Part shown: positions 3,959 through 64,000 of the stretch, piece by piece
Layout: every line of letters starts with the position of its first letter
Numbering within the stretch: the first letter of the stretch is position 1
DNA from: Paludibacteraceae bacterium
GTDB lineage: Bacteria; Bacteroidota; Bacteroidia; Bacteroidales; Paludibacteraceae
Length of the DNA: 64,000 nucleotides
Assembly (NCBI GenBank): GCA_045577965.1
Contig: JAZNJI010000002.1
Coordinates: 4,323-68,322, forward strand
Reading direction: 5' to 3'
Notes under the pieces: generated by a model
Database searches by the model: none
Told to the model about the DNA's origin: nothing
The model's input: the letters and a program-made list of their open reading frames with translations, nothing else
Position numbers and translations under genes: made by a program

Positions 3959-3993
3959 ATACACAGGAAATTGATGAGAAAATAAAGGTGCAG

Positions 3994-4062
3994 TTTCTGC
4001 GGTTATTGCGGTTTTAGCGGTTTTTGGAAAACCGCAATAACCGCAGAAACCGCTAAAACCGC
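3994..4062. terminator. long hairpin immediately after the DUF3987-like gene
   Basis: tttctgcggttattgcggtttt (3994-4015) pairs with aaaaccgcaataaccgcagaaa (4028-4049). An alternative pairing is gcggttttagcgg/ccgctaaaaccgc. Confidence 0.7.
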
Positions 4063-9195: not shown

Positions 9196-9296
9196 GACGG
9201 CACAAAATGCCTACAGGACGCTTGCGAGCGAGCTATAGGACGCGCTGATGGCGCTATAGGTTAAAGGTTAAAGGTTAGAGGCAAAAGGCGAGAGGC
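9172..9296. repeat. word-array / mini-hairpin repeat (includes the last codons of ddl)
   Basis: gaggacgccgcagagcggctatag gacggcacaaaatgcc tacag gacgcttgcgagcgagc tatag gacgcgctgatggcgc tatagg ttaaaggttaaaggttagaggcaaaaggcgagagg. Confidence 0.85.
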
Positions 9297-29450: not shown

Positions 29451-29640
29451 GCAAACGAAGTTTGCGTAAATGGTCGCTCATGAGCGATGAATGATGGCTA
29501 AGGCGACAGTGGCAGCAGGGCTGCGAAAATGGCTCAAGCGTGATAACGTGAAACCACTTTCGCGAGCGTAGCGAGCCATAAACGCAAAGCCACTTTCGTG
29601 AGCGCAGCGAACCATGAACGTGAGCAAAGCGAACAAAGAT
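29451..29640. repeat. word-array / hairpin repeat downstream of tpiA
   Basis: The palindrome tcgctcatgagcga is followed by repeated (aaatgg/cacttt/catgaa)+cgtgagcg.agcga units. A 33-nt block is about 90 percent identical to 49355-49387. Confidence 0.85.
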
Positions 29641-29641
29641 T

Positions 29642-32996: not shown

Positions 32997-33000
32997 AATC

Positions 33001-33168
33001 TTGTTGTAGCGCTGTGTAGCGGTTGTGTAGTAGCGCTGCGCGCTGTGTAGCAGTTGTGTAGGGTTGTGTAGCAGTTGTTATTCTAGGATTCCATCCTATA
33101 CCACTCTATACCACCCTATACCATGCTATACCATCCTACACCATCCTATACCATCCTACACCATCCCC
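33001..33168. repeat. inverted word arrays (gtgtag words, then ctatacc/ctacacc words) with hairpin agcgctgcgcgct
   Basis: A C-poor half (33001-33090) is followed by a G-free half (33095-33168), between the kinase and peptidase genes. Confidence 0.85.
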
Positions 33169-34202
33169 CTCTGGGCGACCTCTGCCGCCTCCACATTCGG
33201 CAGACAGTCCAGATGATAGCATTTCACATGCGTGATCACGTGCTTGATGCTCTCGTACATGCAGTCGGCCATCTGTCGGTCCATTTTCAGTCCCGACGCC
33301 GATGACAGCATATACGCATATGCCTCTGGCAGTGAGAGGATTCGCATCTTATTATGCGGTGCCTGACTCAGTTTGATGATTCCTCCTACGCGTGCGCACG
33401 CATTCTTGTAGCAAGGTGTCTTGCCGCTCCATGGCGAACCATAGACGCGCACTTCACCGTCCTCCATCACGCGCAAGATTGGATTGTCGTCGTTGAGCAG
33501 CCATGCGTCATCGAAGGCCGCCAACCACTGCCGCGCATGCGTGGACTTACCCGTCCCGCTATGCCCCAAAAACAAGTACCCTTTCGCCTCGTCCCTCACC
33601 ACCACCGCAGCGTGCATCTCTAGGGTCATCAGTGGGGCGGTGCGGAAAGCAAATAGCAGCATCAGCGCATTGTCGATGCAGAACCTAACATCCTGACAAT
33701 CAGGCATTATGTATAGCACACCTTCCGTAAAATTCTCACTACATTCCATCTCGCAGCAGATAGGCGCGTTGGCCACCATCGCCACGCGGAACAACCAAGT
33801 GTGTGGTATAGGGTTGTTTAGGGTTGTATAGGATTGTGAAGAGTGGTACACTTCGATCCTAGGCATATCTTCCTCTGCATTATCGGTCAGCACATGGGTC
33901 CACTCCTCGCCTATTTGCCTTTCGCCTTTCGCCTCTTCCATTTCCACGCTGAGCGTGAAGATAGGAGTTGAATGCTTCTCGCATTCCATATCTTTGTCGC
34001 GGCAGGGAGTTCTTATCTCACTTTCGTTCGAACGATCTGCTTCGCCGTACGATTGCCGCGAAATGTTGTCTATATTGTCGTTGTTATTTATCTCCACGGC
34101 AAATGGCAGATAATTCGTCATACATGACAACAGCGCACCGTCGCTGCATTCCACAGCGAACAGATGCTCCGCTACGCGGTAGTATGTACGACTAAACGCC
34201 AT
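33156..34202 (-). CDS. HPr-kinase-like P-loop kinase (HprK-related)
   Basis: YLFLGHSGTGKSTHARQW P-loop within an HprK C-terminal-like fold. The start MAFSRTYYRV lies 21 nt after a TACTTTTG box. It contains two in-frame word arrays. Confidence 0.7.
   Translation of the reverse strand: MAFSRTYYRVAEHLFAVECSDGALLSCMTNYLPFAVEINNNDNIDNISRQSYGEADRSNESEIRTPCRDKDMECEKHSTPIFTLSVEMEEAKGERQIGEEWTHVLTDNAEEDMPRIEVYHSSQSYTTLNNPIPHTWLFRVAMVANAPICCEMECSENFTEGVLYIMPDCQDVRFCIDNALMLLFAFRTAPLMTLEMHAAVVVRDEAKGYLFLGHSGTGKSTHARQWLAAFDDAWLLNDDNPILRVMEDGEVRVYGSPWSGKTPCYKNACARVGGIIKLSQAPHNKMRILSLPEAYAYMLSSASGLKMDRQMADCMYESIKHVITHVKCYHLDCLPNVEAAEVAQRGMV
33801..33850 (-). repeat. in-frame word array inside the HprK-like gene
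   Basis: Plus strand gtgtggtatagggttgtttagggttgtataggattgtgaagagtggtaca encodes ..YHSSQSYTTLNNPIPHT.. on the minus strand. Confidence 0.7.
33904..33939 (-). repeat. in-frame word array inside the HprK-like gene
   Basis: Plus strand tcctcgcctatttgcctttcgcctttcgcctcttcc encodes ..EEAKGERQIGEE.. on the minus strand. Confidence 0.65.
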
Positions 34203-34222
34203 TGTGCAGTTGAAATTTTCTG

Positions 34223-34230
34223 CAAAAGTA
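34223..34230 (-). promoter_or_regulatory. -7 box TACTTTTG for the kinase-peptidase-PqqD-NTase operon
   Basis: 21 nt before ATG 34202. No room for an upstream ORF. Confidence 0.7.
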
Positions 34231-34304
34231 GCAAAAAATACGCACATACGCAAATAAATTCAAAGAAACTCTCATTTTCCTTTGCATATTTGCAAAAAAA
34301 GCCG

Positions 34305-39837: not shown

Positions 39838-39882
39838 TCCCGCCCTCCCAAAATTGATTTATTAGCCTTCGGGCTTATCTTA

Positions 39883-39915
39883 CACCACAACCGCTCACTC
39901 TGGGCGGTTGTGGTG
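39883..39915 (+). repeat. conserved cassette hairpin, copy 1
   Basis: caccacaaccgc-tcactctgg-gcggttgtggtg. The 3' flank ttagtccactctttcagaaaaaa is shared with copy 2. Confidence 0.85.
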
Positions 39916-40202: not shown

Positions 40203-40234
40203 CTCACAACCGTTCTCTCAGGGCGGTTGTGGTG
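40203..40234 (+). repeat. conserved cassette hairpin, copy 2
   Basis: ctcacaaccg-ttctctcagg-gcggttgtggtg, followed by tttagtccactctttcagaaaaaa. Confidence 0.85.
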
Positions 40235-40326
40235 TGTTTAGTCCACTCTTTCAGAAAAAAACATATCGAATAATACTAAATTGCATAAATTTTGTACAAT
40301 AATTTTCAAATTTCAAAAATTTATTG

Positions 40327-40923: not shown

Positions 40924-40985
40924 AAACTGCGTTTCTCCACGCAATCACAAAAACCTGTGCACACCACAGATCTTATAACCCCATC

Positions 40986-41016
40986 CCACAACCGCTCACT
41001 CTGGGCGGTTGTGGTG
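40986..41016 (+). repeat. conserved cassette hairpin, copy 3
   Basis: ccacaaccgc-tcactctgg-gcggttgtggtg, followed by tttttagga. Confidence 0.85.
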
Positions 41017-41090
41017 TTTTTAGGAGTAGCACTTTGTGAAATAATAGGCACTTATTTTATATAACACTTGCATATTTCATTTTTTTTCTG

Positions 41091-42053: not shown

Positions 42054-42083
42054 CCCAACCGCTCACTCAGGGCGGTTGTGGTG
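42054..42083 (+). repeat. conserved cassette hairpin, copy 4
   Basis: cccaaccgc-tcactcagg-gcggttgtggtg, followed by tgtttagga. The left arm is 2 nt shorter. Confidence 0.8.
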
Positions 42084-42100
42084 TGTTTAGGAATATACTG

Positions 42101-42240: not shown

Positions 42241-42310
42241 TAGGATATTTAGGAAATTTAGGAATTTCGGGAATTTAATTTCCTAAAATTCCTAAAATTC
42301 CTAATGTTCC
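42241..42310. repeat. palindromic word array
   Basis: taggatatttaggaaatttaggaatttcgggaattt-aa-tttcctaaaattcctaaaattcctaatgttcc. Confidence 0.85.
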
Positions 42311-43638: not shown

Positions 43639-43642
43639 GCTT

Positions 43643-43716
43643 GGTGTAGAATGGTATAGGATAGTATAGAAGTGGTATAGGATGGTATAGAATAGTATAG
43701 AAGTGGTATAGGATGG
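43643..43716. repeat. C-free word array upstream of four-helix-bundle gene 1
   Basis: ggtgtagaatggtataggatagtatagaagtggtataggatggtatagaatagtatagaagtggtataggatgg. Confidence 0.9.
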
Positions 43717-44117
43717 TTGGATTTGCTACGAAAATAGAAGATTTGAGGATATGGCAAAATGCTCGTACTATCAGTAAAGCTATATACAGCCTCACTTACC
43801 ATGATAACTTTGAGAAAGATTATCGCTTTGTACAACAAATTCGCGCCGCTGCAGGATCTATAATGGATAATATTGCAGAAGGATTCGGAAGAAGTGGAAG
43901 CAAAGAATTTATACAATTTCTTTATATTGCAAGAGGCTCTTGCCAAGAAGTTATTAGCCAACTATACCGTGCATGGGATATTCAATATATTTCTGAGGAA
44001 GAATTCACAGAAACTAAAAAACAGGTCGAGACAACTTCTGTTATGATTTATAACCTAATAGATAATCTCAAGCAATCAGAAAACAAAGGTCCCAAGTACA
44101 GCCCTACACCCCACTAA
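43713..44117 (+). CDS. four-helix-bundle protein (23S rRNA IVS protein / Avd-like family)
   Basis: IEDLRIWQNA...FVQQIRAAAGSIMDNIAEGFGRSGSKEFIQFLYIARGSCQEV is the family signature. A paralog lies at 62361-62762. Confidence 0.8.
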   Translation: MVGFATKIEDLRIWQNARTISKAIYSLTYHDNFEKDYRFVQQIRAAAGSIMDNIAEGFGRSGSKEFIQFLYIARGSCQEVISQLYRAWDIQYISEEEFTETKKQVETTSVMIYNLIDNLKQSENKGPKYSPTPH

Positions 44118-44251
44118 ACCACCCTATACAACCCTACACAGCGCGAAGCGCTACTAAACAACCCTATACAATACTACACAGCGCAAAGCGCTACTAAACA
44201 ACCCTAAACAACCCTACACAACCCTATACAACCCTATACAACCCTATACAA
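44103..44251. repeat. G-free word array with two GCGAAGC-type mini-hairpins downstream of four-helix-bundle gene 1
   Basis: ccctataca/ccctacaca words plus agcgcgaagcgct and agcgcaaagcgct. It runs up to the frr ATG. Confidence 0.9.
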
Positions 44252-44252
44252 T

Positions 44253-44813: not shown

Positions 44814-44934
44814 GTTTAGGTTAAAGGTTAGAGGTTAAAGGTTAGAGGTTAAAGGCTAGAAATACCACCCTATACCACCCTACACAACACTACTCTACTG
44901 CTAAACTACTATCGCAAAGCGATCACTCATACTG
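44814..44934. repeat. word arrays (C-free, then G-free) with mini-hairpin
   Basis: gtttaggttaaaggttagaggttaaaggttagaggttaaagg, then ataccaccctataccaccctacacaacactactctactgctaaactact, then atcgcaaagcgat. Confidence 0.9.
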
Positions 44935-46077: not shown

Positions 46078-46122
46078 CCACACTACACAATATTGAACAA
46101 CGTTGAACCATTTTGAACCAAC
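46078..46122. repeat. word array
   Basis: ccacactacacaatattgaacaacgttgaaccattttgaaccaac. The ttgaac words also occur at 62.3-62.8 kb. Confidence 0.75.
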
Positions 46123-46126
46123 TTTT

Positions 46127-47119: not shown

Positions 47120-47156
47120 TTTATAGTTTATAATTTAAAGTTTAAAGGCTCAGATC

Positions 47157-49263: not shown

Positions 49264-49440
49264 TCGCTGAGCGACGTAAATGGCGGCAAAGCCGCGAAAA
49301 TGGTCTTCGACGAAAATGGCACCTCTGGTACGAAAATGGTCTTCGACGTAAATTACGTGAAACCACTTTCGTGAGCAAAGCGAGCCACTTTCATGAACGA
49401 AGTGAATCACTTTCGTGAGCGATAGCGAACCATTTAACAT
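49264..49440. repeat. word-array / hairpin repeat downstream of recA
   Basis: The palindrome gtcgctgagcgac, (g)aaaatgg words and cactttcgtgagc..agcga units are present. It is related to 29451-29640. Confidence 0.85.
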
Positions 49441-51031: not shown

Positions 51032-51112
51032 CCACCCTACGCAACACAACACTACACTATACTACCCTACACTACACTATACTACACCACACTACACAAT
51101 ACTACACAACCC
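51030..51112. repeat. G-free word array forming the tcdA leader
   Basis: accaccctacgcaacacaacactacactatactaccctacactacactatactacaccacactacacaatactacacaaccc. Confidence 0.9.
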
Positions 51113-51114
51113 TT

Positions 51115-57098: not shown

Positions 57099-57100
57099 AA

Positions 57101-57149
57101 TACAATACTACACCACTCTAAACAACACTACACTATCCTACACAACCCC
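57101..57149. repeat. G-free word array forming the serS leader
   Basis: tacaatactacaccactctaaacaacactacactatcctacacaacccc, followed by ATG. Confidence 0.85.
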
Positions 57150-57150
57150 T

Positions 57151-58503
57151 ATGCTTACACTCAAACAAATATACGACAACAAAGCAGCCATTGTCGCTGG
57201 CTTAGAGAAAAAACATTTCGCTAATGCAGCTGAAACTATTGAGCAAGTCATCGCTCTTGACGCTGAACGCAAAGCTGCACAACAAAAGAAGGACGCTGCG
57301 TCTGCCGAGATGAACAAGATCTCCAAGTCGATTGGTGCACTCATGGCGCAAGGCAAAAAAGACGAAGCAGAGGCGGCCAAAGCACAAACAGGTGCACTCA
57401 AGCAAGCCATCCCTGGCTACGAACAAGAGATGGCAAAGGCTGAAGAGGCTTTGACAACACTTCTTCTCACCATCCCTAACGTACCTTATGACCTCGTACC
57501 AGAAGGTGGCAGTGCAGAGGATAACCTCGTCGTGAAAATCGGCAACTGGGCTAACCAACCGATGCTTGACAAACTCGCTGCCGAAGGCACTATCGCAATC
57601 CGCGATTGGGATAACGCCACCGACGAACAACTTGCCAACAACGATAAACTCCCACATTGGGAACTCGCAAAAAAATACAATCTTATTGACTTCGATTTAG
57701 GTGTCAAAATTTCTGGCGCTGGCTTCCCTGTATACATAGGTTTAGGCGCGCGCTTGCAACGCGCGTTGATTAACTTTTTCCTCGCAGAAGCAAACAAAGC
57801 AGGATACACCGAGATTATGCCTCCTACAGTAGTCAACCAAGCCAGCGGTTATGGTACAGGCCAACTACCTGATAAAGAGGGACAAATGTACCACTGCCAA
57901 TTGGACGACCTATACTTGATTCCTACAGCAGAGGTACCTGTAACCAATATCTACCGCGATGTAATTCTCGAAGAGGCACAACTCCCAATCAAGAACTGCG
58001 CTTACACCCAATGTTTCCGCCGCGAAGCGGGTTCATACGGCAAAGATGTACGCGGACTCAACCGCCTGCACGAGTTCAGCAAAGTGGAGATCGTTCGTAT
58101 CGATACCCCTGAACACTCCGACAAGAGCCACAAAGAGATGTTAGAGCACGTAGAAGGCCTTCTCCAAAAACTCGAACTCCCTTATCGTGTACTACGCTTG
58201 AGTGGTGGTGACATGTCATTTACCGCTGCCCTCTGCTACGACTTTGAAGTGTATTCCGAGGCACAACATCGTTGGTTAGAGGTGTCGTCAACTTCGAATT
58301 TTGACACCTATCAAGCCAACCGTTTGCACTGCCGCTATCGTCGTGCAGAAGACAAGAAAGTCACTCTAGCTCACACACTTAACGGCTCTGCACTTGCTCT
58401 CCCTCGTATCGTGGCTGCCCTTTTGGAGAACAACCAAACACCCGAGGGTATCCGCATACCTGCCGCACTCCAACCATACATGGGATGCGACATGATTAAG
58501 TAA
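57151..58503 (+). CDS. serS: seryl-tRNA synthetase
   Basis: Coiled-coil N terminus and class II motifs (FRREAGS, GSALA.PR) are present. The track start at 57091 lies in the terminator and word array. Confidence 0.93.
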   Translation: MLTLKQIYDNKAAIVAGLEKKHFANAAETIEQVIALDAERKAAQQKKDAASAEMNKISKSIGALMAQGKKDEAEAAKAQTGALKQAIPGYEQEMAKAEEALTTLLLTIPNVPYDLVPEGGSAEDNLVVKIGNWANQPMLDKLAAEGTIAIRDWDNATDEQLANNDKLPHWELAKKYNLIDFDLGVKISGAGFPVYIGLGARLQRALINFFLAEANKAGYTEIMPPTVVNQASGYGTGQLPDKEGQMYHCQLDDLYLIPTAEVPVTNIYRDVILEEAQLPIKNCAYTQCFRREAGSYGKDVRGLNRLHEFSKVEIVRIDTPEHSDKSHKEMLEHVEGLLQKLELPYRVLRLSGGDMSFTAALCYDFEVYSEAQHRWLEVSSTSNFDTYQANRLHCRYRRAEDKKVTLAHTLNGSALALPRIVAALLENNQTPEGIRIPAALQPYMGCDMIK

Positions 58504-60226: not shown

Positions 60227-60296
60227 CAACACCAAACAATACTACACAGCCCGCTTGCGGGCACTACACAACGCTAAACAATATAACACGATACAA
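60225..60296. repeat. G-poor word array with mini-hairpin forming the tkt leader
   Basis: aacaacaccaaacaatactacac, then agcccgcttgcgggc, then actacacaacgctaaacaatataacacgatacaatc. Confidence 0.85.
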
Positions 60297-60298
60297 TC

Positions 60299-62311
60299 AT
60301 GAATTCAAAACAACTAATGACAAAAGCGGCAGATAACATCCGTATCCTCGCCGCAGCAATGGTCGAGAAGGCCAAGAGTGGTCACCCAGGTGGCTCTATG
60401 AGTGGAGCTGACTTTGTACAAGTGCTTTACTCTGAGTTCCTTATCCACGACCCAGAGAACCCATGTTGGGAGGCGCGCGACCGTTTCTTCCTTGATCCTG
60501 GTCACATGTCACCAATGCTCTATGCACAACTCTGCATGACAGGCCACTTCACCATGGACGAACTCAAGCAACTCCGTCAATGGGGCAGCGTCACTCCTGG
60601 TCACCCAGAGCGCAATGTAGAGCGTGGCATCGAAAACACCTCTGGTCCTCTTGGTCAAGGTCACACTTTTGCTGTTGGTGCGGCTATTGCGGCTAAGTGG
60701 TTCAACGCTCGTTACGGCGAGATCCACAACCCTACAATCTACGCTTTCATCTCTGATGGTGGTATCCAAGAGGAGATTAGCCAAGGTGCTGGCCGTATGG
60801 CAGGTCACCTCAAACTCAACAACCTCATCATGTACTACGACTCCAACGAGATTCAGCTCTCTACCTCTTGCAACGAGGTAAGTTCCGAGAACGTAGCCAT
60901 GAAGTACGAGGCATGGGGTTGGTATGTTCAAGACATCGATGGTCATGATCCTGACGCTATCCGCCAAGCTATCATCAACGCACAAGCAGAGAAGAATCGC
61001 CCATCGCTCATCATCGGTCATACTTCTATGGGTAAAGGCTGCGTGAATGCCGAAGGCGAGAGTTGGGAAGGTAAGACCTCTACCCATGGTCAACCACTCA
61101 GCAAGTCTGGTGCATCGTTTGAAGCTACTGTCAAGAACCTTGGCGGAGACCCTGAGAACCCATTCCAAATTTTCCCTGACGTACAAGCGCTCTTCGACAA
61201 ACGCGCTGAGGAACTTCGTGAGATAACCAACCAACGCTATGCCGCTTATCACGAATGGAAAGAGGCTAATCCATTGGCTGCCAATGAGTACGAGACCTTT
61301 ATGAGCGGCGAGACACCTTGCCTTGACTGGAGTTTGCTCCAACAGAAAGACAATGTCGCAACCCGTACAGCTTCCGCTTCTGCCCTCTCCTTCCTCTCTG
61401 AGCATGTCGGCAACATGATTGTATCCTCCGCCGACCTTTGCAACTCAGATAAGACCGACGGCTTCCTCAAGCATACCCATGTCATCACAGCCGATGACTT
61501 CACCGGTCGCTTCCTCCAATCAGGTGTGAGCGAGCTCACCATGGCGTGCGTCTGCATTGGTATGGCGCTCCACGGCGGTATCATTCCTGCTTGTGGTACC
61601 TTCTTCGTCTTCTCTGACTACATGAAACCTGCTATCCGTATGGCAGCCCTCATGGAGATTCAGATGATGTTCGTTTGGAGCCACGATGCTTTCCGTGTAG
61701 GTGAGGATGGTCCTACCCACGAGCCAGTGGAGCAAGAGGCACAAATCCGTCTCATGGAGAAACTCCACAACCATTCTGGTCGTCCAAGCGTGATGGTACT
61801 CCGTCCTGCTGACGCAGAGGAGACTACTGCTGCATGGAAGATGGCAATGGAGAATATCTACACCCCAACTGCCCTTATCTTCTCTCGCCAAGATGTTACC
61901 TCTGTGCCTAACACCTCAGAGGCTGGCGTGAAGAAAGGTGCGTATATCGTAAGCAAAGACGAGAGCCCACAAGTGGTGATGATCGCTTCTGGTAGCGAGG
62001 TATCTACCCTTATGGCTGGTGCTGAACTCCTCCGCGCCGAGGGTATCCGCCTTCAAATCGTGAGCGTTCCTTCAGAAGCGATCTTCCGTCAACAAAGCAA
62101 GGAGTACCAAGCAGAGGTGTTGCCACAAGGTGTTACTCGCTTTGGTTTGACCGCAGGCTTGCCATGTAACCTCGAAGGCCTCGTAGGCGAACACGGTACA
62201 GTTTGGGGACTCAATTCCTTCGGTTTCTCCGCACCATACAAAGTGCTCGACGAGAAACTCGGCTTCACCGCAGAGAATGTATATAACCAAGTTAAAGCGT
62301 TGCTTTCGTAG
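60299..62311 (+). CDS. tkt: transketolase
   Basis: SGHPGGSMS, GPLGQGH and the TPP/pyrimidine-binding blocks are present over 670 aa. Confidence 0.95.
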   Translation: MNSKQLMTKAADNIRILAAAMVEKAKSGHPGGSMSGADFVQVLYSEFLIHDPENPCWEARDRFFLDPGHMSPMLYAQLCMTGHFTMDELKQLRQWGSVTPGHPERNVERGIENTSGPLGQGHTFAVGAAIAAKWFNARYGEIHNPTIYAFISDGGIQEEISQGAGRMAGHLKLNNLIMYYDSNEIQLSTSCNEVSSENVAMKYEAWGWYVQDIDGHDPDAIRQAIINAQAEKNRPSLIIGHTSMGKGCVNAEGESWEGKTSTHGQPLSKSGASFEATVKNLGGDPENPFQIFPDVQALFDKRAEELREITNQRYAAYHEWKEANPLAANEYETFMSGETPCLDWSLLQQKDNVATRTASASALSFLSEHVGNMIVSSADLCNSDKTDGFLKHTHVITADDFTGRFLQSGVSELTMACVCIGMALHGGIIPACGTFFVFSDYMKPAIRMAALMEIQMMFVWSHDAFRVGEDGPTHEPVEQEAQIRLMEKLHNHSGRPSVMVLRPADAEETTAAWKMAMENIYTPTALIFSRQDVTSVPNTSEAGVKKGAYIVSKDESPQVVMIASGSEVSTLMAGAELLRAEGIRLQIVSVPSEAIFRQQSKEYQAEVLPQGVTRFGLTAGLPCNLEGLVGEHGTVWGLNSFGFSAPYKVLDEKLGFTAENVYNQVKALLS

Positions 62312-62351
62312 TTCAATATAGTTCAACGTTGTTCAAAATAGTTCAACATTG
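62311..62351. repeat. gttcaa word array upstream of four-helix-bundle gene 2
   Basis: gttcaatatagttcaacgttgttcaaaatagttcaacattg. Confidence 0.85.
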
Positions 62352-62360
62352 TATACTTGA

Positions 62361-62762
62361 ATGGCAGATATTCGTAAGATAGAAGACTTGCGCGTTTGGC
62401 AGAGTGCACGTGTGATTTGCAAAGATGTATATGTGCTGACACGCAAGGAAGAATTTGAAAAAGATTTTCGCTTTGTTCAACAAATCCGTTCTGCAGCAGG
62501 ATCTATTATGGATAATATCGCAGAAGGATTTGGACGAGGTGGAAACAAAGAGTTCTTGCAATTCTTGACTATTGCGCGAGGATCTATTCAAGAGGTATTA
62601 AGCCAGTTATACAGAGCTTTTGATGTTGGCTATATTACAGAAGATGAATTGGAAGTAGTTAAACAGAATGTTAATTCTACAGCTATTATGATTCATAACT
62701 TAATTGAAGCTATCAAAAAATCCGATATGAAAGGTTCTAAATACAACACTGAACCACACTGA
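62361..62762 (+). CDS. four-helix-bundle protein (23S rRNA IVS protein / Avd-like family), paralog 2
   Basis: IEDLRVWQSA...FVQQIRSAAGSIMDNIAEGFGRGGNKEFLQFLTIARGSIQEV is present. By eye it is about 60 percent identical to the 43713-44117 product. Confidence 0.8.
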   Translation: MADIRKIEDLRVWQSARVICKDVYVLTRKEEFEKDFRFVQQIRSAAGSIMDNIAEGFGRGGNKEFLQFLTIARGSIQEVLSQLYRAFDVGYITEDELEVVKQNVNSTAIMIHNLIEAIKKSDMKGSKYNTEPH

Positions 62763-62830
62763 ACAACTCTGAACCACAACATTGAACAGCGCGCAGCGCT
62801 ATTGAACCATATTGAACAATTTTGAACCAA
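62744..62830. repeat. tgaacc/ttgaac word array with mini-hairpin downstream of four-helix-bundle gene 2
   Basis: caacactgaaccacactgaacaactctgaaccacaacattgaac, then agcgcgcagcgct, then attgaaccatattgaacaattttgaacc. Its words are the reverse complement of the upstream gttcaa words. Confidence 0.9.
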
Positions 62831-62841
62831 ATAATAAAATT

Positions 62842-64000
62842 ATGGACTATAATTTTTCCGATATTGAAAAGAAATGGCAAGCCGAATGGGCTAAAGCAGG
62901 TACTTACAAGGTAAGTAACCAAAGCGACAAAAAGCCCTTCTATGTCCTCGACATGTTCCCTTATCCATCGGGCGCGGGCTTGCACGTAGGTCACCCCCTC
63001 GGCTATATCGCCAGTGACATTTACAGCCGCTACAAACGCCTTCAGGGATTCAATGTCCTCCACCCAATGGGCTTCGACTCCTACGGTCTGCCTGCGGAGC
63101 AATATGCTATCCAAACAGGTCAACACCCAGAAAAGACCACTATGGAGAATATCGCTCACTATATCGAGCAACTCCAAAAGATTGGTTTCAACTACGATTG
63201 GGATCGCGAAGTAAAAACTTGCAACCCAGACTTCTACAAGTGGACACAATGGGCATTTATCCAAATGTTCAACTCCTACTTCGATACCTCTTTGCAGAAG
63301 GCACAACCTATCAGCAAACTGATTGAGAAGTTCGAGACTACCGACCCAACATGGGCAACCCTCTCCGAGAAAGAGCAACAAGAGCGCCTCATGAACTACC
63401 GTATCGCGTACCTCGCTGATACCAAAGTGAACTGGTGCCCACAACTCGGTTGTGTGCTCGCCAATGACGAAGTGAGCGAAGGCCTTTCTGTTCGTGGTGG
63501 CTACCCAGTTGAGCAACGCGTCATGCGCCAATGGAACCTCCGTGTAAGTGCCTACGCACCACGCCTGCTCCAAGGACTTGATACTGTGGATTGGACAGAC
63601 TCCCTCAAGGAGACCCAACGCAACTGGATCGGTCGCAGCGAAGGTGCTGAGATGCGCTTTGCTATCAAAGGACAAGACGAACCATTCACTATCTTTACTA
63701 CCCGTGCAGATACAGTGTATGGCGTGACCTTTATGGTATTGGCTCCAGAGAGCGAGTATGTAGCGCGTGTGACTACCGAGGAGCAAAAAGCAGAGGTAGA
63801 GGCGTACCTCCAAATGGTGAAGAACCGTACCGAGCGTGAGCGTATTGCTGACCGCCGTGTGACAGGTGTGTTCACAGGTTCGTATGCTATCAACCCTCTC
63901 ACCAAAGCTGAGATACCTATCTATATAAGTGACTATGTATTGAGCGGTTATGGCACAGGTGCTATCATGGCTGTGCCTGCACACGATAGTCGTGACTATG
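62842..64000 (+). CDS. leuS: leucyl-tRNA synthetase (N-terminal part; continues beyond window)
   Basis: [34 protein letters not shown] (HIGH motif) and the editing-domain entry are present. It is not in the ORF track because no stop lies in the window. Confidence 0.93.

Follow-up and report, generated by a model that had tools for sequence, protein, structure and literature searches.

In a 64-kb window (the whole stretch of DNA that was analysed, from a Paludibacteraceae metagenome-assembled genome), a gene for a four-helix-bundle (4HB) protein lies between tkt and leuS, and its two flanks are short tandem arrays whose words are reverse complements of one another. Such complementary flanks are a property of the 4HB family and are specific to 4HB genes, unlike arrays as such. 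We give about an even chance to the reading that this locus (locus 2; a second 4HB gene of the window, between pyrH and frr, is locus 1) is one instance of a phylum-wide stem-enclosed 4HB cassette, an analogue, carried in mRNA, of the 23S rRNA intervening sequence (IVS). The cassettes are promoter-less and are placed at junctions of co-directional, mostly housekeeping genes.

The 4HB gene between tkt and leuS and its close relatives

The open reading frame (ORF) at locus 2 (62361–62762, forward strand) encodes 133 amino acids. The protein belongs to the family PF05635/TIGR02436, scoring above both curated thresholds: the match to PF05635 (23S_rRNA_IVP) had E=2.7e-33 and 114.8 bits against a cut-off of 33.8, and that to TIGR02436 (‘four helix bundle protein’) had E=4e-31 and 107.4 bits against a cut-off of 24. 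PF05635 was the only Pfam match, and the sole solved sequence relative was the pentameric XCC0516 (PDB 2GSC). In Bacteroidota, few small proteins of unknown function are more abundant than this family, which has been puzzling since its discovery inside 23S rRNA IVSs in 1993. We know of no PF05635 role outside the Avd proteins of diversity-generating retroelements (DGRs).

Upstream of the gene, GTTCAA recurs at 62311, 62321, 62331 and 62341 with an exact 10-nt period, made up of the 6-nt word and a 4-nt spacer. The first of these words overlaps the tkt stop codon (TAG, 62309–62311), and a linker of 9 nt separates this 5′ arm from the 4HB ATG. Downstream of the gene, TGAAC occurs seven times (62750, 62760, 62770, 62783, 62803, 62813 and 62823), with the full TTGAAC at 62782, 62802, 62812 and 62822. 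The 3′ arm contains a small hairpin, and its distal part stops 11 nt short of the leuS ATG. An earlier sequence-only reading of the window had reported the GTTCAA words upstream and the TTGAAC/TGAAC words with the hairpin downstream, and all of these were found at 62311–62830. It had also proposed an array-encoded C terminus. The final codons, AAC ACT GAA CCA CAC TGA (NTEPH and stop), lie within the first two downstream units; therefore, the C terminus is indeed encoded by the array.

The arrangement is far from what shuffled sequence produces. For the pattern GTTCAA-N4-GTTCAA-N4-GTTCAA, 0.00 matches were expected in the window from shuffles and four were observed, two of them upstream of the locus 2 gene, one, as the reverse complement, downstream of it and one at 46093. 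The two flanks share 24 inverted 6-mers, compared to an average of 4.2 and at most 11 over 200 shuffling trials, and direct sharing amounts to only four. The best inverted alignments of the arms were 31 nt at 81% and 16 nt at 94% identity.

The exact or near-exact locus 2 protein was found between tkt and leuS in ten metagenome contigs, and an 82%-identical orthologue occupies the same junction in another lineage (L011). Across the three lineages, all of these tkt–4HB–leuS loci keep GTTCA at −50, −40, −30 and −20 from the ATG and TGAAC at −13, −3 and +7 from the stop, together with an identical mini-hairpin. The number of 3′ units varies by 10-nt steps among strains (L001–L010). The 3′ arrays of the pyrH–frr and tkt–leuS loci both differ by whole units between strains; these loci, like the WbqC locus described below, would serve well as strain markers. 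One contig (L005) carries the identical 4HB gene in a different upstream context. We rejected it as a second insertion site and regard it as a chimeric or rearranged contig, because the last ∼30 nt of tkt are retained and the coverage is 1x. In other Bacteroidales (L139, 3336–3650; L161; L178), a 33%-identical 4HB subfamily also lies directly after tkt, with a different downstream gene; its flanks are again complementary, with purine-rich GGAGTAAGGA words upstream and TTATTCC heptamers downstream.

Complementary flanks were present at five of five independent 4HB loci of the clade, each with its own word. The five pairs are GTTCAA/TTGAAC, GGTATAG/CTATAC, TTGAGTAG/CTACTCAA, GGGTAG/CTACCC and GTGTAG/CTACAC. 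At the WbqC locus, the number of upstream GTGTAG units ranges from ∼6 (L021, 2915–2990) to ∼25 (L200, 1240–1495). The sequence-only reading had compared just the two loci of the window, estimating by eye that their proteins are ∼60% identical (64.8% over 128 amino acids when aligned) and noting that the flank words differ between the loci and yet are mutually reverse-complementary, a description that extends to all five word pairs. Its generalization that complementarity is conserved while sequence is not was thus upheld as an observation; as to the cause, the pattern is compatible with a selected structure and with an insertion or recombination mechanism alike.

Complementary flanks in distant Bacteroidota

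At E≤1e-10, the locus 2 query has 7,925 homologues. When species-representative genomes were scanned, at least 79 loci at 45–54% identity were obtained, including loci from Flavobacterium, Paludibacter, Mariniphaga, Chitinophagaceae, Hymenobacter, Lewinella and Cyclobacteriaceae; among the matches listed, none was from the genus of the window. Most of these distant loci show by eye a G/T-rich array upstream and its complement downstream, with periods of 7, 8, 10 or 14. The word differs at every locus, as in the pairs GTTTCAA/TTGAAAC, GGTTTGGG/CCCAAACC, GTTCCGT/ACGGAAC, GGTTGCG/CGCAACC and TTCCAGG/CCTGGAA.

We scored the sharing of inverted 6-mers between the two flanks, taking a value of at least 15 as positive and using 246 other genes from the same loci as controls. 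Positive scores were obtained for 69% of 75 4HB loci and 17% of the controls (p=5e-16). The median inverted and direct sharing values were 20 and 8, respectively, for the 4HB genes, and 7 and 8 for the controls. Where both flanks were periodic, 85% of the 4HB genes and 44% of the controls were positive. Two of the controls that scored positive were themselves PF05635 genes. In L060 (2737–3126) and L114 (2712–3071), a second PF05635 gene with inverted flanks lies ∼1 kb upstream of the queried 4HB gene; therefore, 4HB cassettes can cluster. The sequence-only reading had conceded that its two cases would be coincidental if other paralogues lacked inverted flanks; instead, all five clade loci and most of the distant loci carry them.

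The geometry of the arms was also consistent. The best ungapped inverted alignment had a median of 26 nt at 88% identity, and the period was equal on both sides in 27/34 loci. In 24/34 loci the exact inverted match was longer than one period, so that the complementarity spans whole units and a continuous duplex is possible. The arms have a marked polarity: 52% of the 4HB loci are G/T-rich upstream and C/A-rich downstream and 3% show the reverse, compared to 19% and 19% of the controls. The upstream neighbour was co-oriented with the 4HB gene in 75/77 cases and the downstream neighbour in 65/74, against a baseline of 74% for adjacent pairs. Median gaps to the neighbours were short (84 nt upstream and 58 nt downstream).

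Arrays by themselves are common, and it could be argued that the inverted flanks are a by-product, with G/T arrays that follow stop codons and C/A arrays that precede start codons happening to mimic complementarity. Periodic sequence was found in 27–34% of other co-directional gaps but in 0.7% of coding samples, and heptamer arrays before start codons have already been described in some Bacteroidetes (PMC4679880). The window itself holds many arrays: Tandem Repeats Finder (TRF) returned 88 rows of short-period arrays in the 64 kb, and a listing of all gaps showed that the co-directional ones are largely packed with tandem arrays of 7–11-nt period. On the coding strand most are rich in C and A and poor in G, and they reach the next ATG (for example, ahead of tkt, serS and frr, and at 51032–51114; further sites are 44118–44252, 57100–57150, 60227–60298, 62763–62841, 9258–9296, 44814–44860 and 47120–47156), and some stop codons are trailed by G/T- or G/A-rich arrays. 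Arrays alone are therefore not special, and it is the complementary pairing that has to be explained. On this point the 4HB genes and their same-locus controls part company, since direct and inverted sharing are equal in the controls while inverted sharing far exceeds direct sharing around 4HB genes. Furthermore, tkt and frr have arrays on both sides within the window and these are not complementary. Pure coincidence is thus largely refuted, and we consider this explanation very improbable.

Another possibility is that the words are iterated RNA or DNA sites for a protein, either the 4HB protein itself, as an Avd-like binder, or another factor, in the manner of RAYT proteins and REP sequences. 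Avd, which is of the same family as 4HB, binds nucleic acid and a reverse transcriptase. A strict 10-nt period with conserved 6-nt words in fixed phase and more variable spacers, as seen at locus 2, would suit such a role, as would the local recurrence of words. Of the other arrays within ±4 kb, 29% have 7-mers in common with the 4HB flanks, compared to 3% across genomes, and the cassette words reappear in other arrays of the window, with the CTACAC/CTATAC family at no fewer than eight junctions and TTGAAC at 46093. However, proteins that are 65–82% identical have unrelated flank words, at least ten further word families in the window are without a visible cognate gene, and the complementarity mostly extends over whole units, beyond the core word. 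To our knowledge, there is also no known DNA- or RNA-sequence specificity in the 4HB family. We therefore regard protein-binding arrays as distinctly unlikely. A two-component form of the idea, in which each 4HB paralogue, lying between inverted copies of its own word, would serve in trans as the binder, chaperone or propagator of a single family of word arrays peculiar to its genome, seems to us similarly doubtful. If correct, it would describe a RAYT/REPIN-like partnership built on an Avd-like binder and would give the ‘23S IVS protein’ family a function; it would apply to the arrays of Bacteroidota intergenic leaders and perhaps to the heptamer arrays of Cyanobacteria and Beggiatoaceae.

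Predicted folding, sequence history and the level of pairing

When the segment from the tkt stop to the leuS start was folded, the 5′ array was predicted to pair with the distal 3′ array in both the minimum free energy (MFE) and the centroid structures (z=−4.7), with the mini-hairpin as a side branch of the long stem. The predicted fold of locus 1 likewise encloses the ORF (z=−2.6). By MFE, 19/20 cassettes fold 10–45 kcal/mol better than the same sequences after shuffling or reversal of the 5′ arm; only L021, which is without a 3′ arm, did not.

In the explanation that we favour, the cassette would be co-transcribed with its host operon, here tkt–4HB–leuS, and the arrays of the transcript would pair to give a duplex of ∼25–30 bp around the ORF. 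As both arms are tandem arrays of equal period, several pairing registers should be available and the gain or loss of units should be tolerated. The duplex would have the topology of the 23S rRNA IVSs, whose stem is cut by RNase III, and by this analogy it is a probable RNase III substrate, with which the median arm length is compatible. A stem that is processed, or otherwise insulating, would allow the 4HB mRNA to be expressed while leaving the flanking essential genes unharmed. Translation initiation in Bacteroidota proceeds largely without Shine-Dalgarno pairing. The C/A-rich 3′ arm may double as an unstructured leader of the downstream gene, and this would account for the almost exclusive arrangement of G/T-rich arms upstream and C/A-rich arms downstream. 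In a variant of the mechanism, the ribosome terminating on the upstream gene would melt the 5′ arm and free the downstream leader, restoring translational coupling. Arm pairing in the transcript, cleavage by RNase III and any effect on the neighbouring genes are our inferences.

Several observations weigh against this explanation. The arms of both window loci are imperfectly complementary (79–85%), and there are also G/T-rich and C/A-rich arrays that have no partner. A stem that was neither cut nor melted would sequester the leader of an essential downstream gene. The ORF of the Coxiella IVS is reported to be probably untranslated (PMC4990558). A comparison of sense and antisense duplex energies, used as a test for G.U wobble pairs, gave no sense-strand signature; on average the antisense duplex was 3 kcal/mol better than the sense duplex (p=0.01), and the pairing could therefore equally be a property of the DNA. 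The 3′ arrays are likely to be poor in G and T for independent reasons, which leaves this test uninformative or mildly negative. Substitutions in the 5′ arm showed no visible compensation in the 3′ arm at the level of strains, where substitutions are few (at the tkt locus, one A>G makes a G.U pair and one T>A breaks a pair). Finally, at the WbqC site in L021–L028 only 13 nt remain downstream, the 3′ array having gone and the gene having been kept. Since the orthologues L198 and L200 retain a complementary 3′ array, this state is a secondary loss, and we did not accept these loci as a counter-example.

The history of the locus was examined by comparison with relatives. Between the window and L011, the 4HB ORF has a non-synonymous divergence (pN) of 0.10 and a synonymous divergence (pS) of 0.78, and the protein is therefore functional and under purifying selection. 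Identity at four-fold degenerate sites is 47% in the 4HB gene and 63–64% in tkt and leuS, whereas that of the arrays is 80% (5′) and 94% (3′), with no change in the mini-hairpin. The arrays are thus conserved above the neutral expectation, for which either selection or continual homogenization could account. Compared to L001, the window is 99.0% identical in the ORF and 100% in the 3′ array but 86% in the last 450 nt of tkt and 92% in leuS. The same holds for L001, L002 and L004 together, where the ORF and 3′ array are near-identical to those of the window despite diverged flanks. With L011 the relation is the opposite (76% for the ORF and 86–90% for the flanks). The discordance between ORF and flanks shows that cassette alleles are exchanged horizontally between lineages, and the sequences hint at a left breakpoint near the start of the 4HB gene.

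The cassette is also absent from some close relatives. At the tkt–leuS site, L119 has no cassette; its tkt segment is 97% identical at the amino acid level, and its 45-nt spacer carries CACTAAAC words surrounding the hairpin GTACC-AAA-GGTAC. At pyrH–frr, the cassette is missing from L033–L036 and L038 and present in L037. No target-site duplication was detected in the empty-versus-occupied comparisons at either junction, the whole spacer being different. The empty pyrH–frr junctions of L033–L036 hold 10-nt-period arrays of other words (TCTAGA, TTAGAAC), with a central hairpin GCCC-TTT-GGGC in L033, and the gap in L038 is 5 nt; this junction is hypervariable in content across those genomes whose 4HB protein at the TIM locus is identical.

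Arrays with the inverted layout can occur without a gene. On the reverse strand of the window, 32997–33155 has the architecture of locus 1 minus the central gene; relatives of this array were sought through the adjacent 146-amino acid protein, which is not on record. Other palindromic arrays in which a G/T-rich array is followed by its complement around a geneless loop lie at 3989–4062 and 42241–42304 and, in relatives, at L049 7513–7758 and L104 1667–1769. The array at 3989–4062 directly follows a gene end and forms a ∼33-bp stem followed by a T-rich run, thus resembling a terminator made of inverted arrays.

These findings bear on the possibility that the element acts at the level of DNA, the arms being inverted termini of a cassette that is mobile or can be exchanged, a hairpin or cruciform at whose apex the 4HB gene inserts, or homology arms through which recombination could swap cassette alleles. 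Complementarity would then be a by-product of cassette arrival or of arm gene conversion and not of selection on RNA. The presence/absence polymorphism among close relatives (L119 at tkt–leuS; L033–L036 and L038 at pyrH–frr), the sharing of words between empty palindromic arrays and nearby cassettes (window 32997–33155; L049 7513–7758), the discordant history of cassette and flanks (window versus L001 and L011) and the lack of a strand-specific G.U signature all fit such an element, and 23S IVSs also replace hairpin apices, in helices 9, 25 and 45 (PMC4990558). Against it, there is no transposase, recombinase or target-site duplication at the cassette, and the words are locus-specific, when a mobile family should have conserved ends. 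Cassettes that are 24% diverged occupy the same site in different lineages, so movement between sites is rare. Co-orientation and the G/T-then-C/A polarity are explained most simply at the level of the transcript or of translation, and the arrays are conserved above synonymous sites even without evident exchange. On balance we consider a DNA-level element rather unlikely, and stem enclosure in the mRNA remains our preferred explanation.

Further arrays of the window and comparison with known systems

The features of the two window loci, the related arrays and the further clade loci are collected in Table 1.

Table 1. Coordinates and words of the 4HB loci and associated arrays (window positions; for loci of relatives, the neighbouring genes and words are given)
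Feature	Position	Strand	Basis or detail
tkt (transketolase), upstream host	60299–62311	+	ORF; Pfam Transketolase_N/pyr/C on the near-identical L001 gene
Locus 2, 5′ arm: GTTCAA ×4, G/T-rich	62311–62351	+	Word positions; TRF array 62307–62352
Locus 2, 3′ arm, proximal: TGAAC ×4 (62750, 62760, 62770, 62783), C/A-rich	62746–62787	+	Overlaps ORF end
Locus 2, mini-hairpin AGCGC-GCA-GCGCT (AGCGCGCAGCGCT), G+C, inside 3′ arm	62788–62800	+	Sequence
Locus 2, 3′ arm, distal: TTGAAC ×3 (62802, 62812, 62822)	62801–62830	+	Best partner of the 5′ arm (31 nt, 81%)
leuS (LeuRS), downstream host, leaves window	62842–64000	+	ATG at 62842; Pfam tRNA-synt_1, tRNA-synt_1_2 on L001
Locus 1, 5′ arm: ∼7 units GGTATAG(G/A)A(T/G), directly after pyrH	43642–43717	+	Repeat analysis
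Locus 1, 4HB paralogue, 134 amino acids, 65% identical to locus 2	43713–44117	+	Alignment
Locus 1, 3′ arm: ∼14 units CTA(T/C/A)ACAACC (CTATACAACC), reaching frr ATG (44253)	44098–44251	+	Repeat analysis
Locus 1, mini-hairpins in 3′ arm: AGCGCGAAGCGCT; AGCGCAAAGCGCT	44140–44152; 44180–44192	+	Sequence
Third array of the locus 2 word: TTGAAC ×3, 10-nt period, no 4HB gene	46093–46118	+	In gap 46078–46126, before ATG 46127
‘Empty’ architecture: (GGTATAGGAT)×7, then CTACACAAC array with AGCGCGCAGCGCT, no gene between	32997–33155	−	Listing of gaps
L029/L203, between rplS and DAPDH			5′ GGGTAG/GTGTAG; 3′ CTACCC/CTACAC
L033–L037, between TIM and hexapeptide transferase			5′ TTGAGTAG; 3′ CTACTCAA
L037, between pyrH and frr			5′ and 3′ words as window locus 1
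L198/L200, between WbqC and aminotransferase			5′ GTGTAG; 3′ CTACAC/CTAAAC

Mini-hairpins with a G+C clamp lie between array units at several places in the window (62788–62800, 44140–44152, 44180–44192, 33035–33047 on the reverse strand and 60252–60265) and also in L119, L033, L064, L110 and L116. Their density is 2.7/kb in co-directional gaps and 0.9/kb in coding sequence, a ∼3-fold difference. Most of the 3-nt loops read GNA or AAA on the coding strand (GCGAAGC, GCGCAGC, GCAAAGC), with nine AAA or GNA loops on the sense strand compared to two TTT or TNC loops. The sequence d(GCGAAGC) is an unusually stable DNA mini-hairpin.

Arrays also affect the calling of ORFs. The 365-amino acid ORF at 33156–34253 (reverse strand) is probably two genes joined by in-frame read-through of an array at ∼33800–33850 (AACCCTATAC words), its C-terminal part containing the P-loop kinase-like motif GHSGTGKST. 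Similarly, the TTG-started serS ORF (57091) reads through an array, the true start of serS being the ATG at 57151. Two intergenic stretches, 29451–29641 and 49264–49438, contain a different class of repeat, with GCGAAAATGG(T/C)-like units followed by complementary CCACTTTCGTGAGC(A/G)AAGCGA units and periods of 16–46. A near-identical hairpin, CACAACCGCTCACTC(T/A)GGGCGGTTGTGGTGT, occurs four times (∼39880–39915, 40205–40245, 40985–41020 and 42055–42090) in a region poor in long ORFs (39.6–42.9 kb). Each copy trails a short ORF or a non-coding stretch, and the hairpins look like terminators of a repeated small unit.

IVS-like, stem-enclosed 4HB cassettes in protein-coding operons, with arms made of locus-specific tandem arrays, are apparently undescribed: a full-text search of a non-exhaustive literature library returned nothing on complementary arrays flanking 4HB genes. 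Individual placements have been recorded, with 4HB genes between cas genes such as cmr3 and cmr2 (PMC3936711) and between gmk and nadD in Flavobacterium columnare (PMC5524665), and both fit the picture of a gene that rides in an operon. Hundreds of 4HB genes in protein-coding operons have this predicted stem-enclosed topology, with arms that covary as whole arrays and are more conserved than neutral sequence. Under the favoured reading, the rRNA and non-rRNA members of PF05635 would be united by one architecture, giving a model that is directly testable, and the poorly understood short tandem arrays upstream of bacterial start codons would be tied to a specific gene family. The junctions are also hypervariable, strain-discriminating loci beside essential genes.

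Some known systems could be set aside. A CRISPR array was rejected since the period is 10 nt, compared to repeats of ∼24–48 nt with unique spacers. We also rejected an insertion sequence or miniature inverted-repeat transposable element, as there is no transposase, the words are locus-specific and comparison with the empty site of L119 revealed no duplication. Neither the PADLOC models of anti-phage defence nor the PHROGs phage families gave any matches.

Among DGRs, the avd gene is bracketed by the repeats VR and TR. Avd and 4HB belong to the same family and have a homologous four-helix-bundle fold (PMC10053308). However, the neighbours of the cassette are tkt and leuS with no reverse transcriptase nearby, and its repeats are inverted and of short period, in contrast to the ∼100-bp direct VR/TR repeats with adenine-specific differences. 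We therefore rejected this assignment: the 10-nt arrays share 6-mers in the inverted orientation, as given above for locus 2, far more than in the direct one.

The REP/REPIN sequences with their RAYT genes resemble the cassettes in that a small gene sits amid inverted copies of a repeat family that is also dispersed in the intergenic regions of the genome. The 4HB protein is, however, not an HUH/Y1 (IS200/IS605-like) transposase, the tandem words of 7–14 nt differ from palindromic REPs of 20–40 nt, and one genome has many word families. With inverted, dispersed repeats present but PF05635 as the sole Pfam match of the protein, we did not count locus 2 as a REP/RAYT system.

Intergenic direct heptamer repeats (TAACTGA and others) precede start codons in Beggiatoaceae, Cyanobacteria and five Bacteroidetes (MacGregor 2015, PMC4679880), and ‘long simple sequence repeats’ of prokaryotes belong to the same comparison. 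The heptamer repeats resemble the cassette arms in being short tandem arrays before starts, in forward orientation, of variable copy number and sporadic occurrence. A role in translation has been proposed for them, and unlike the cassettes they are direct arrays only (PMC4679880); the terms ‘helix bundle’, ‘S23’ and ‘intervening’ have no occurrences in that article, which describes no complementary array pairs.

The closest parallel is the 23S rRNA IVS of Leptospira and Coxiella burnetii. In Coxiella, the IVS is 428 nt long, contains a PF05635 ORF and has inverted repeats whose 28-bp stem is cleaved by RNase III; IVSs take the place of hairpin tips, are sporadic and have been transferred horizontally (PMC4990558). 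Rfam gave no rRNA or other family in the window at gathering thresholds, nor at the locus at E≤1. Locus 2 was not classed as an IVS proper, because it lies between tkt and leuS, although a bordering stem is predicted. The host is thus a protein-coding operon junction and not helix 9, 25 or 45, the arms are imperfect tandem arrays of 7–14-nt units with a locus-specific word and variable copy number, and the 3′ arm reaches the start codon of the next gene; RNase III cleavage of the cassette is suggested by analogy. The likenesses are nevertheless extensive: in both cases a PF05635 ORF lies in a unit of ∼430–600 nt with complementary termini that can form a long stem, has no promoter of its own, rides on a highly expressed host transcript, and is sporadically distributed with evidence of transfer.

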